Below, in pieces: positions 8,700 through 15,314 of a stretch of DNA of 16,498 nucleotides. Source of the DNA: a virus. Taxonomy: Duplodnaviria; Heunggongvirae; Uroviricota; Caudoviricetes. The notes beneath the pieces were generated by a model. That model was not told the origin of the DNA. It worked only from the letters and a program-made list of their open reading frames with translations, and did not search any database. Position 1 is the first letter of the stretch. The number at the start of each line of letters is the position of its first letter. The stretch covers positions 1-16,498 of IMG/VR virus record IMGVR_UViG_2737471837_000012. One strand, given 5' to 3'. Position numbers and translations under genes: made by a program.

Positions 8700-9358
8700 T
8701 TGTTCTCCAAAATATTGATTCTGCAATTTCGGGACGTTACACTGTTCCGGCACCTTATAAAGCGGGTGCCGGGATTGGAACCCCGGAATTGCATACGGCG
8801 ATATACGACGCGCCAGCGTCTTTTTTATCGTCCGCGCTCACGCACGCCAGAATTATGGTGGGCTGGGCAGGGGAGCCGAAAGGCTCGCCGGTTTCCGTAT
8901 GCGCCGGTAGTTCCAACCCTGTTCAGTTCACCACCAGTGAGATTGGAACCTCCGGTGGTGGAAGTTATCCATTGCATACGGAGGCTGCCATCATGGCTAC
9001 AGTCCCAACTTCCCCATACCTGAAAATCGAAGTCGTCAACGGCAAAGCTGTTATTTTCTCCCTGCATGTAGCCTGCCATTTCAAGCGCATGCACCAGAAC
9101 ATCGTCGACAAAATCGAGTATCTGAACTGCTCGCGCGAGTTTTTTACCCGTAATTTCATACCGGGTACTTATCACATCTATGGTGACTCTCTGCGTGGTT
9201 ATTACATCACCCTTGATGGTCTGATGATGCTTCAGCTTGGGTTAAGTCTGCGCACAATGCGGTACTACGAGAGCTGTATTGATGCATTCCATGAAGCTGA
9301 AACCGTCCAGGTACATTCCGCTTTTCGCCGTAATCAATGGGAGGCGCGCCATGTGTAA
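8696..9358 (+). CDS. Hypothetical protein (220 aa)
   Basis: ATG overlaps the Ant stop (ATGA). The competing minus-strand ORFs start with GTG and lack a Shine-Dalgarno. Function not recognisable by eye. Confidence 0.5.
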   Translation: MIVLQNIDSAISGRYTVPAPYKAGAGIGTPELHTAIYDAPASFLSSALTHARIMVGWAGEPKGSPVSVCAGSSNPVQFTTSEIGTSGGGSYPLHTEAAIMATVPTSPYLKIEVVNGKAVIFSLHVACHFKRMHQNIVDKIEYLNCSREFFTRNFIPGTYHIYGDSLRGYYITLDGLMMLQLGLSLRTMRYYESCIDAFHEAETVQVHSAFRRNQWEARHV

Positions 9359-12997: not shown

Positions 12998-13241
12998 ATG
13001 ACTTTTACCCCTGAACAACTACGTAAACAGGCACAGGAAATGTTGCGACAGGCGGAACAACTGGAAAAAAACAGGTGTAACAAAAGATGCCATTCGTAAG
13101 GATATGGTGCCAGCGCTCAGGGAACTGATGCAGGCGAAACACCGCGCACAAAAAGCAGTGGATGAGCTGGTGGATTGTGTGGCAGAGCTGGAAACCAAAG
13201 TTGGAAAGTTTGAAAAACTGGTGCAGGAGGTGCTGCGCTGA
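12998..13241 (+). CDS. Small helical protein gene interrupted by a +1 frame change at an A7 homopolymer (13065-13071)
   Basis: Frame-1 ORF 12998-13099 (33 aa) and a +1-frame ORF ending at 13241, whose TGA overlaps the rusA ATG (TGATG). Removing one A restores an 80-aa ORF of uniform charged and helical character. Confidence 0.4.
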
Positions 13242-13600
13242 TGCGCCATGAGTTTATTTTACCTTATCCGCCGACGGTAAATACTTACTGGCGACGTCGT
13301 GGCAACACATATTTTGTATCAAAAGTCGGTGAGCGTTATCGCCGTGATGTGGCGCTAATTGTTCGCCAGCAGCGGTTGAAATTAAACCTGTCCGGAAGGC
13401 TGGCGATAAAGATTATTGCAGAGCCACCGGATAAGCGCCGTCGTGACCTGGACAATATCCTGAAAGCACCACTGGATGCACTGACACATGCGGGATTGCT
13501 TATCGACGACGAGCAGTTTGATGAAATCAATATTGTGCGCGGTCAGCTCGTTCCTGGTGGGCGGCTGGGCGTGAAGATTTACAAAATTGAAAGTGAGTGA
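13241..13600 (+). CDS. rusA: RusA Holliday-junction resolvase (119 aa)
   Basis: Strong resemblance to E. coli RusA as recalled from memory, including the PDKRRRDLDN and LIDDEQ acidic catalytic motifs. Confidence 0.9.
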   Translation: MRHEFILPYPPTVNTYWRRRGNTYFVSKVGERYRRDVALIVRQQRLKLNLSGRLAIKIIAEPPDKRRRDLDNILKAPLDALTHAGLLIDDEQFDEINIVRGQLVPGGRLGVKIYKIESE

Positions 13601-13608
13601 GCGTAAAT

Positions 13609-14145
13609 ATGATATACCCGGAAATTACAGGCAAAAGCGGTGAGCATTTACGCCTGAAAACTCTGGAAAGTGTCTGGCTCCAGGGGAAACTGCGTATGTG
13701 GGGGCGTTGGTCGTATATAGGTGGTGGCAAAACAGGAAATATGTTCAATCAGTTGCTGGCATCCAAAAAACTGACAAAAACCGCGATCAATGAAGCCATG
13801 CGCAAAATCAGGGAATCAGGGATTGATAAACCTGAACTGGAAGCATTCTTGCGTGAGATGATCGAAGGAAAGCAAAAAAGCTGGTTAACTCACTGCACTG
13901 ATGCAGAGGCACTAAAAATTGATAGTGTTATAGGTGAAGTTCTGGCGGATCATCCAGGACTACTAAATGTCCTGAGTCAGCGTTATGTGGGGCGAGGGAT
14001 GAGTAAGAGAAGGATGGCCGAGTTATTAAACGAACAGTACCCAGAGTGGGCGTTGATTACATGCCGACGTCGTGTTGATCAGTGGTTGCGTGTTGCTGAG
14101 TTCATTTTGTACTCACCTATGAGAGAAGCGTTCGATTATACTTAA
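13609..14145 (+). CDS. Late-gene antiterminator Q-like protein (about 178 aa)
   Basis: Positional call: last gene before an intrinsic terminator that precedes the late-region cargo, downstream of rusA as in lambdoid phages. Trp/Gly motif (LESVWLQGKLRMWGRWSYIGGG) is reminiscent of Q-family proteins. Start taken at ATG 13609 rather than the track's GTG at 13597. Confidence 0.5.
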   Translation: MIYPEITGKSGEHLRLKTLESVWLQGKLRMWGRWSYIGGGKTGNMFNQLLASKKLTKTAINEAMRKIRESGIDKPELEAFLREMIEGKQKSWLTHCTDAEALKIDSVIGEVLADHPGLLNVLSQRYVGRGMSKRRMAELLNEQYPEWALITCRRRVDQWLRVAEFILYSPMREAFDYT

Positions 14146-14152
14146 AAAATCA

Positions 14153-14181
14153 TTGCAAAATGAGCCACAAACTGCTTCAAT
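14153..14181 (+). promoter_or_regulatory. Possible late promoter PR'-like (-35 TTGCAA 14153-14158, -10 TTCAAT 14176-14181)
   Basis: Weak sigma70-like hexamers with 17-bp spacing, located between the Q-like gene and the terminator. By position only. Confidence 0.2.
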
Positions 14182-14239
14182 TCCGGTACGCTCCGCATAG
14201 CTGTATCGCGAGGCGAATCAAGCGCATGAACTTTGATAC

Positions 14240-14263
14240 AACCCGCCATTGAGCGGGTTTTTT
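14240..14263 (+). terminator. Rho-independent terminator (tR'-like) downstream of the Q-like gene
   Basis: Stem ACCCGC / GCGGGT with loop CATTGA, followed by a run of six T. Confidence 0.7.
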
Positions 14264-14385
14264 ATGTCCGAAAAACGGCAGAGAACATAAAACGTGCTGG
14301 TGGTTGCGAATACTGGTCTTTCGGCTTGTATTTTTGTAAATCGATATATACTTATCTTGTGACCAGTAATGTCAGGGCAATTGAT

Positions 14386-15129
14386 ATGAATGAAGCCTGT
14401 TCTGTTGTTTTTGTTCATTCCCCGTTTGTTGTGCTCTTTGAAGGAAAAGAGCTCTCTCTTGAAAGTGGTAGTGCACTTCTTGTCAGGGGGGGAGCTGGAT
14501 CGTTATTGCCCTTTTCGGAATGTTTTCGGCGAATAAGTCTCAGTGAATCGACAATTAGCCGTTACCTGTTGTGTGGAGACGAAAAACAGGATGTAGTTTT
14601 AGTCCGGCAAATACCACGATATCTTTGCGTGAGTTTTCCCAAGGCAGAATTGATGGGCATCCTGATTGATTATCTTTGTGAGGAAAAGATTCATACGGAC
14701 AATTTAGCGGAAATGCTTTCCTTTTCGTGTCTGGCGTTTTTCTCATCAGAGAAAATGTTTTCGTCGTTTCTGACCGCGTGTATTAGCAATATTAGTGACA
14801 GGCTTAGTGCATTGTTTCGCACGGACATTGCAGCAAACTGGACTCTGAGAGATGTGTCTTCGCGGTTATGTATCAGTGAAAGTTTGTTAAAAAAAAGACT
14901 GAAAGAAGAAGGCACCTGTTTCAGTGAGTTGTTGCTTACAGAGAGAATGAGAATGGCAGCAATGCTGTTGAATCAATCTCGTTGCGCCATCAACAGAATC
15001 GCTGCCCAGTGCGGCTATAATTTTACATCTTATTTTATCAGCGTATTCAGGAGTTATTTTGGTGTTACACCGGCAGGTTACAGGATGGCTGCATTCAATG
15101 AGATGAGTTTAAGTGTTACTCAAGAATAA
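14386..15129 (+). CDS. AraC/XylS-family transcriptional regulator (about 247 aa), AT-rich cargo gene
   Basis: C-terminal double-HTH AraC signature (WTLRDVSSRLCISESLLKKRLKEEG...INRIAAQCGYNFTSYFISVFRSYFGVTPAGYR). About 40% GC versus about 53% in the phage core. The track's start at 14233 is a TTG overlapping the terminator, so ATG 14386 is used. Confidence 0.8.
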   Translation: MNEACSVVFVHSPFVVLFEGKELSLESGSALLVRGGAGSLLPFSECFRRISLSESTISRYLLCGDEKQDVVLVRQIPRYLCVSFPKAELMGILIDYLCEEKIHTDNLAEMLSFSCLAFFSSEKMFSSFLTACISNISDRLSALFRTDIAANWTLRDVSSRLCISESLLKKRLKEEGTCFSELLLTERMRMAAMLLNQSRCAINRIAAQCGYNFTSYFISVFRSYFGVTPAGYRMAAFNEMSLSVTQE

Positions 15130-15153
15130 TTGAATTTTGCACTCATTGAAAAC

Positions 15154-15177
15154 AGGCTCGCTGCGGCGGGCCTTTTT
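15154..15177 (+). terminator. Rho-independent terminator after the AraC-family gene
   Basis: 8-bp stem AGGCTCGC / GCGGGCCT (one G-U pair), tetraloop TGCG, then TTTTT. Confidence 0.6.
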
Positions 15178-15314
15178 CATATCCGCGCCACGCCCGGCGC
15201 ATATCAAAAACCACAGAGCCTTTCAGGGGTGAGCTTACGGGATGGTCAGTGTGACTTTCTCTGTGGGCTGGTCACCCCAGGGCGCAGGCTCACCCACTAA
15301 AAGGAAAAGTCACG

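Follow-up and report, generated by a model that had tools for sequence, protein, structure and literature searches.

A 247-amino-acid regulator of the AraC/XylS family is encoded at positions 14386-15129 (+ strand) of the virus record IMGVR_UViG_2737471837_000012, here called the window: a stretch of 16,498 nucleotides that is part of an Escherichia coli lambdoid prophage and extends from the integrase as far as the lysis-proximal region. Pfam, NCBIfam, PHROG and BLASTP comparisons place the protein in the YdeO/GadW/PatE/PsrB group, and its gene is carried on a swappable cassette behind a Q-like antitermination gene. The interpretation favoured here, at a probability of about 0.6, is that this cassette is a prophage moron encoding an activator of the YdeO/GadW/PatE/PsrB/AppY type with, we infer, GAD-type targets and two modes of expression.

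The AraC-family assignment made in the initial annotation of the open reading frame (ORF) was confirmed by Pfam, in which HTH_18 (E=1.9e-13; 50.9 bits, cut-off 33.6) and HTH_AraC (E=2.9e-13; 50 bits, cut-off 26.6) both exceeded their curated thresholds. The top NCBIfam model was YdeO (NF007407), with residues 2-230 of the protein aligned to positions 2-228 of the 253-position model. The score of 148.3 bits is far from the equivalog cut-off of 348 bits, and orthology to YdeO was rejected in favour of paralogy. Orthology to GadX was likewise rejected, the GadX model (NF007432) reaching 98.5 bits, in the C-terminal half only, against an equivalog cut-off of 500 bits. The protein also matched PHROG 1450 (E=1e-56), which contains the PsrB/PatE-type regulators.

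Reference proteins were extracted from the K-12, Sakai and EDL933 genomes and compared by BLASTP, which gave essentially full-length alignments. Identity was 39% over 234 residues with Sakai ECs0287, the presumed PatE, and 37% over 236 residues with Z2104/PsrB (E=1e-40 to 1e-50), followed by YdeO (36.5%), GadW (36%) and AppY (30%); identities from the multiple alignment run 2-3 points below these values. The homology to PsrB and PatE is full-length and includes the N-terminal domain. The protein is therefore of the prophage-borne AraC-like type, as the initial annotation had supposed, and every relative of at least 33% identity from the homologue searches whose context was examined lies on a prophage or phage, rather than being a chromosomal housekeeping regulator in an unrelated setting. 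At 37-39% identity, orthology to PsrA, PsrB or PatE was rejected; true orthologue pairs, for scale, share 91.6% (the Stx2k phage gene and PsrB) and 98.8% (the mEp332 gene and ECs0287). In a collection of 5.8 billion proteins, the lineage formed a tight group at 99, 87, 85, 83 and 76% identity, with the next relatives at 42% or less. A looser E-value homologue search gained one match, and a profile search was used to reach further relatives. Those of at least 33% identity for which a source is named all come from E. coli and carry generic annotation only. Judged by these comparisons, the gene is a divergent member of the YdeO/GadW/PatE/PsrB/AppY group and an orthologue of none of them; its lineage is a separate one, sharing no more than 42% identity with any other cluster found, and is so far known by generic annotation only.

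The ORF of 247 codons is intact from the ATG at 14386 to the TAA at 15127-15129. This ATG was accepted as the correct start because all relatives have the start M..VCSV, with which the N-terminus MNEACSV aligns. A longer, TTG-initiated ORF of 298 residues was rejected, since the N-termini of the relatives favour the ATG and the TTG version would span the upstream terminator. A Shine-Dalgarno-like AGGG was read from the sequence at 14374-14377 (+), 8 nt 5' of the ATG, and a TCAGG at this region is kept in an alignment of loci with different Q families. The ORF was uninterrupted in all five of the other loci examined, and the ratio of nonsynonymous to synonymous substitution rates (dN/dS) was ~0.3; i.e., the ORF is selectively maintained under purifying selection. 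A decayed pseudogene was rejected on the same grounds.

The fold was predicted with AlphaFold2 from a 50-sequence alignment, giving a mean predicted local distance difference test score (pLDDT) of 87; a single-sequence model (pLDDT 45) was discarded. From the model and Foldseek, residues 1-130 (14386-14775, +) are predicted to form an N-terminal regulatory/dimerisation domain, with a beta-sandwich followed by helices, and residues 136-234 (14791-15087, +) a C-terminal DNA-binding domain with two helix-turn-helix motifs. The latter matched the GadX DNA-binding domain (3mkl) both by sequence (E=1.7e-22) and by fold (template-modelling (TM) score 0.91-0.93; root-mean-square deviation 0.9-1.1 Å). 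The DNA-binding domain is 42-52% identical to those of the presumed PatE, PsrB, GadW and YdeO, and the N-terminal domain 25-31%. Two segments, SESLLKKRLK and TSYFISVF, are near-invariant across the YdeO/GadW/PatE/PsrB group; in AraC-family DNA-binding domains these would correspond to the two recognition helices.

The top full-length Foldseek matches were Rns, CsvR and ToxT (E=4e-12 to 8e-8), which share the two-domain architecture, and the protein as modelled is a Rns/ToxT-like N-terminal domain joined to a GadX-like double helix-turn-helix DNA-binding domain. These matches, together with an N-terminal domain that is poorly conserved with the GAD-type regulators, could be taken to mean that the protein controls virulence or adhesin genes in response to fatty acids, as a regulator of the Rns/CsvR/ToxT type, or else controls phage genes, and that it is not an acid-resistance regulator. 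This is considered very improbable. Identity to Rns and ToxT is ~20%, whereas the DNA-binding domain shares 42-52% with the GadX/GadW/YdeO/PatE/PsrB set; the full-length superpositions have a TM score of ~0.42 and a large root-mean-square deviation, so that the orientation of the domains differs; and no fimbrial operon lies near the gene. Control of phage genes from this position is also at odds with the downstream neighbours, which vary by context (terB, methylase, holin or a baseplate remnant) and argue against a dedicated local target.

That the gene lies on an exchangeable unit is evident from its flanks. Homology to the prophages of O-island 57 (OI-57) and AST205 extends from RusA through the Q gene and the terminator to position 14328, stops, and restarts at 15153, at the beginning of a strong terminator. 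Elsewhere the same interval is occupied by PsrB and tRNA genes (OI-57) or by a DNA methylase and tRNA genes (AST205). The sharp junctions at 14328/14329 and 15152/15153 therefore define the AraC-like gene as a swappable cassette of 824 bp (14329-15152, +). At 96-98% DNA identity, this cassette was found behind three Q families: the DUF1133 protein (in the window and in NWU_3), a 273-residue lambda-Q-type protein (PF03589; STEC308) and a 127-residue Q (strain 1303). The 273-residue type also precedes P0004, the variant at 83% identity, P0012 (42% identical) follows a lambda-type Q, and the order in Lambda_2G7a is Q, blc, ybgA, AraC-like gene, S. In the ten or more contexts examined, whichever gene came next, the AraC-like gene was always located between Q and the lysis genes, on the same strand and in first or early position. 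The cassette moves between lambdoid prophages, and its presence or absence between conserved flanks marks it as a moron.

The composition of the cassette differs modestly from that of neighbouring genes. Its guanine-plus-cytosine (GC) content is 40.8%, versus 45% for the Q gene, 49% for RusA, 52% for TerB and 51-52% for the DnaB and DnaC-like genes; iraM has 36%. The initial annotation had put the GC content of the gene at about 40%, well below the phage core. The direction of that comparison is fair (42.1% for the ORF, versus 46.4% for the whole window and 51-52% for the replication genes just given), but the figure was slightly low, and low GC is not peculiar to this gene, as 3250-5000 and 5500-6250 in the window are equally AT-rich.

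The cassette gene is present in 65 of 5426 complete E. coli genomes (~1%) and is always chromosomal. Some two thirds of the 40 carrier genomes listed trace to cattle, buffalo, sheep meat, manure or the farm environment, and several are Shiga toxin-producing E. coli (STEC). In E. coli A19 (L010 3897-4711), an insertion of ~815 bp containing an opposite-strand ORF of 187 residues separates the DUF1133 stop codon from the PR'-like promoter, 5' of the same cassette.

The backbone that precedes the cassette closely resembles that of the PsrB locus of O157:H7. The gene for the Holliday-junction resolvase RusA (13241-13600, +; Pfam RusA, E=2.1e-15) is conserved backbone, and its product is 96% identical in amino acid sequence to the RusA (Z2101) beside PsrB in OI-57 of EDL933. 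It is followed by a Q-like late antiterminator gene (13597-14145, +) for a DUF1133 protein of 182 residues (Pfam DUF1133, E=3.8e-100); the RefSeq start of the homologous gene corresponds to position 13609 of the window. The protein is 81% identical to Z2102, which lies upstream of PsrB, also scores above the Pfam Phage_antitermQ cut-off (28.8 versus 26 bits) and has a match in PHROG 753, 'anti-termination protein Q-like' (E=1.4e-75). DUF1133 proteins have been identified, by HHpred, as the Q antiterminators of 13 phages that carry Shiga toxin (Stx) genes (PMC8136144).

The AraC-like gene of OI-57 was equated with Z2104, i.e., PsrB, because the published Z2104 primers fall within it (L008:33274-33987), those for Z2101 and Z2102 falling in the adjacent RusA and DUF1133 genes. 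PsrB and the protein studied here are both AraC/XylS regulators with full-length homology, encoded in the same slot, after RusA and DUF1133 and before terB-DUF3927, in late-gene orientation and with a -10-like hexamer ~33-35 nt before the ATG. They differ in that identity is 37%, the two not being orthologues, and in length (237 residues for PsrB, 247 here). The PsrB locus also has a preceding 65-residue ORF and following tRNA genes, both absent at the window locus; no tRNA genes were found anywhere in the window, unlike the PsrB and Stx loci. PsrA shares 90% identity with PsrB. According to reviews its gene, psrA (z1789), lies in OI-50/CP-933N; annotation and tblastn revealed no AraC-like gene in CP-933N of the resequenced EDL933 (L007) or in Sakai Sp6 (L006). 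CP-933N has a Q of the 273-residue type, with a terB pseudogene after it.

Other relatives occupy different positions. ECs0287 was presumed to be PatE (Z0321) because prophage Sp1, which corresponds to OI-8, has no other AraC-like gene. It too has 247 residues, is prophage-borne and 39% identical over its full length, and has a TATACT equally far from its ATG, but it lies near the tail-fibre or attachment-site (att) end of Sp1/CP-933H and not after Q, as does the mEp332 gene. The chromosomal GAD regulators YdeO and GadW of K-12 share 36-37% identity with the protein, as well as the N-terminal CSV motif and the SESLLKK.LK and TSYFI segments; the protein scores far below their equivalog cut-offs, and is found in a phage context rather than at the safA-ydeO or gadXW loci. 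AppY, from DLP12, is also a prophage AraC regulator, but is more distant (30% full-length identity) and is encoded at the att-proximal end of its prophage.

The relation of the cassette to the toxin genes was established by comparison with phiSTEC1575-Stx2k, in which the order is Q, a Psr-like gene (91.6% identical to PsrB), three tRNA genes, stx2AB, iraM on the opposite strand, and holin. In the window, the backbone terminator at 15155-15189 corresponds to the element just before stx2A, and 16057-16133 together with iraM to the DNA after stx2B. The exact equivalent of the stx2AB interval is therefore 15190-16056, which here holds terB-DUF3927, and the AraC-like cassette is one slot upstream. 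Like the stx operon, the cassette is Q-to-holin cargo in late-transcript orientation, past PR' and tR'. The description of the locus in the initial annotation as the one in which Stx phages carry their toxin genes consequently holds for the Q-to-holin region, but not for the strict position; nor does the AraC-like gene replace the toxin genes, as a Psr-like gene and stx2 coexist in the Stx2k phage.

The arrangement of the Q gene, a PR'-type promoter, a tR' terminator and the AraC-like gene on the same strand, uninterrupted by any opposite-strand unit, agrees with the initial annotation, in which the gene had been placed immediately downstream of a Q-like antiterminator and a tR'-like terminator: the DUF1133 gene ends 240 nt and the hairpin 118 nt before the ATG. 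The PR'-like promoter candidate (14153-14181, +) consists of a -35 element TTGCAA (14153-14158), a 17-nt spacer and an extended -10 element TGcTTCAAT (14173-14181), and would be PR' by analogy with lambda and the Stx phages. The element AAACTGYTTCAAT after Q was invariant in an alignment of four DUF1133-type loci, amid varying bases. A terminator scan identified the tR'-like intrinsic terminator (14240-14265, +) ~60 nt past this promoter, with a 7-bp stem, a 6-nt loop and a T-run (-11.2 kcal/mol; z=-2.5). On inspection of the alignments by eye, the hairpin is kept behind three Q families though both stem arms vary between loci. When the leader (14185-14400) was folded as a whole, no significant structure was found besides the terminator (z=-0.7). 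The part of the leader 3' of the terminator (14266-14328, +) is conserved and common to prophages with other cargo, as backbone or linker.

In lambda and the Stx phages PR' is constitutive, and in lysogens its transcripts are terminated at tR' (PMC7547250). The promoter and terminator described here would in lysogens yield an RNA of ~80 nt (14188-14265, +), for which no Rfam match was found. StxS, a small RNA of Stx phages that is likewise a short by-product of PR', activates rpoS (PMC7547250).

As the AraC-like gene follows the PR'/tR'-like module with no ORF in between, in late-operon orientation, it would be transcribed by Q read-through, and this coupling is plausible. It can be asked whether it is the only mode of expression; i.e., whether the gene lacks a functional promoter, its product being made only when Q antiterminates PR' and acting in lytic growth or in an induced subpopulation. 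The position and strand of the gene in all of the contexts, behind three Q families, are consistent with this, several lysogen-expressed morons nearby run on the opposite strand (iraM, blc and nmpC), and a strict sigma-70 scan found no match between the terminator and the ATG. Induction as the sole occasion for expression is nevertheless judged unlikely. A candidate promoter of the gene's own (14326-14352, +) comprises a -10-like TATACT (14347-14352) and a weak -35 TTGTAT (14326-14331) with a 15-nt spacer. The distance from TATACT to the ATG is 33 nt in the window and equally in P0004, P0012, Lambda_2G7a, mEp332 and the presumed PatE loci; in PsrB and the Stx2k phage the hexamer is TATAAT, 2 nt further upstream. 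The conservation of this element at a fixed distance is set in upstream DNA that is otherwise unalignable among these relatives (37-42% identity). Reasonable -35 hexamers pair with the -10 in the presumed PatE locus (TTGGCA) and in P0012 (TTGGTA). A cell near lysis would, moreover, gain little from an activator of host regulons, and deletion of psrA or patE alters the expression of secretion or acid-resistance genes in uninduced lysogens (reviewed in PMC10877973).

The opposite reading, in which the gene is a lysogenic-conversion moron expressed from its own promoter only, the site after Q being a recombination hot spot and Q read-through irrelevant, is regarded as doubtful, indeed quite unlikely. 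The cassette junctions are sharp and fall within conserved linkers, terminators flank the gene on both sides, and the Q slot is not obligatory, given that the PatE-type relatives occupy a tail-fibre or att-end moron site, as does AppY. Against this, the promoter is weak on paper, the orientation of the gene is invariant, and an antiterminated polymerase must cross the gene upon induction. The conserved -10-like element, the bracketing terminators and the lysogen phenotypes of the relatives together suggest that expression occurs in uninduced lysogens too. Of the initial proposal that Q-dependent read-through ties expression to prophage induction, the coupling is thus supported by the layout, whereas an exclusive tie is disfavoured by the same three observations.

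The interpretation preferred here therefore retains both modes. In lysogens, the activator would be produced at a low level from the weak or activator-dependent own promoter, from leakage past tR', or from both, and the transcripts would end at a strong intrinsic terminator (15154-15178, +) that has an 8-bp stem with 6 GC pairs (-20 kcal/mol; z=-4.3) and starts 25 nt past the stop codon. Upon induction, Q-modified polymerase from the PR'-like promoter would pass both terminators, the AraC-like gene being the first late gene transcribed.

The targets of the protein were considered in the light of its characterized relatives. PatE and PsrB activate gadE and hdeA, and PsrA and PsrB act through GadE/YhiF to repress type III secretion (PMC10877973); AppY feeds into gadE, which is its target, and into RpoS stability (PMC10057817). 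The protein would, as its characterized relatives do, bind AT-rich sites at host promoters. Since PatE, PsrB, AppY, YdeO and GadW all converge on gadE and hdeA in the GAD acid-fitness island, these are the most probable targets, with possible knock-on effects such as repression of the enterocyte effacement locus (LEE) in hosts that have it. The single feature of the protein pointing to gadE/hdeA activation, acid resistance and LEE repression is the conservation of SESLLKKRLK and TSYFISVF.

Several points weigh against the interpretation as a whole. An identity of 37-39% is too low for the safe transfer of a regulon, and with so divergent an N-terminal domain the signal input may differ from that of the relatives. 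The antitermination activity of the DUF1133 protein is a prediction from sequence. The strict consensus scan called neither promoter, the PR'-like candidate having a T at position 2 of its -10 and the gene's own candidate a poor -35 and the short 15-nt spacer. Finally, the downstream terminator is a backbone element shared with prophages that lack the cassette (its equivalent lies after the tRNA genes in AST205 and before stx2A in the Stx2k phage), and the cassette is thus no self-contained promoter-gene-terminator unit.

Downstream of the cassette, a terB-family gene and a DUF3927 (TciB-like) gene occupy 15315-15901 (+); they were recognized by Pfam (TerB, DUF3927) and by PHROG 632 and 1470, both in the category moron. 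The pair recurs past the slot in many prophages (OI-57, CP-933N and AST205). Between DUF3927 and iraM lies an STnc100 small RNA (15943-16118, +; Rfam 93.7 bits, gathering score 47) that ends in a terminator at 16096-16118; phiSTEC1575-Stx2k has the 3' part of it directly behind stx2B. A neighbouring moron, an iraM-like anti-adaptor gene (16163-16498, - strand), scored 163.9 bits against the NCBIfam IraM subfamily cut-off of 121 and matches, at 78% DNA identity, the iraM that follows stx2B in the Stx2k phage, where the Psr-like gene and iraM flank stx2AB.

The host's EvgA-SafA-PhoPQ-RpoS acid circuit includes both YdeO and IraM as nodes. A more far-reaching proposal is that placement as the first gene past tR', behind three unrelated Q families, has been selected; the protein would then be a YdeO-like switch, coupled to the late transcript or to tR' leakage, that reprograms host stress regulons, and in some phages it would form, with an iraM-like anti-adaptor and prophage small RNAs, a portable EvgA-YdeO/SafA-PhoPQ-IraM-RpoS circuit. 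In a variant of this, the N-terminal domain senses a gut fatty acid. The proposal is tentative and rather improbable. Only three records cover at least 80% of 13200-16498, the combination of iraM with this AraC allele being rare; an obligatory link to iraM was rejected, and as the link is not conserved, the reading of the two genes as a stress kit is speculative.

Elsewhere in the window, adjacent matches to isrK and to the C4 antisense RNA were obtained at 8750-8938 (+; Rfam 63.6 bits for isrK and 83 bits for C4, of the P1/P7 immunity type), with a weak c4-a1b1 target match. Genes of the Rha family and one of the ProQ/FinO family lie close by in this early region, and the matches suggest antisense-controlled antirepressor immunity. 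The right end of the window is 99.2-99.9% identical to a prophage beside yecN/cmoA in strains 09-00049, OkiPb01715 and 08-00022, and the 09-00049 prophage is complete for lysis, head and tail genes. None of the complete E. coli genomes covers 80% or more of the whole window. In 09-00049 and its relatives, an IS66 element lies between the DnaB helicase gene and rusA (L001 17195-19783); the window is without it.

Prophage-encoded regulators of the YdeO/GadW-like kind (PatE, PsrA/PsrB and AppY) rewire acid resistance and type III secretion in E. coli and affect persistence in the gut. If the gene described here does drive gadE and hdeA, it would be one more mobile input to the acid tolerance of E. 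coli in the food chain, including STEC. The comparative result may prove the more useful one: beside the stx slot there is a post-Q slot with interchangeable regulator alleles and a conserved promoter-like element, which offers a defined system for asking whether such regulators are expressed in the lysogen, upon induction, or in both states.

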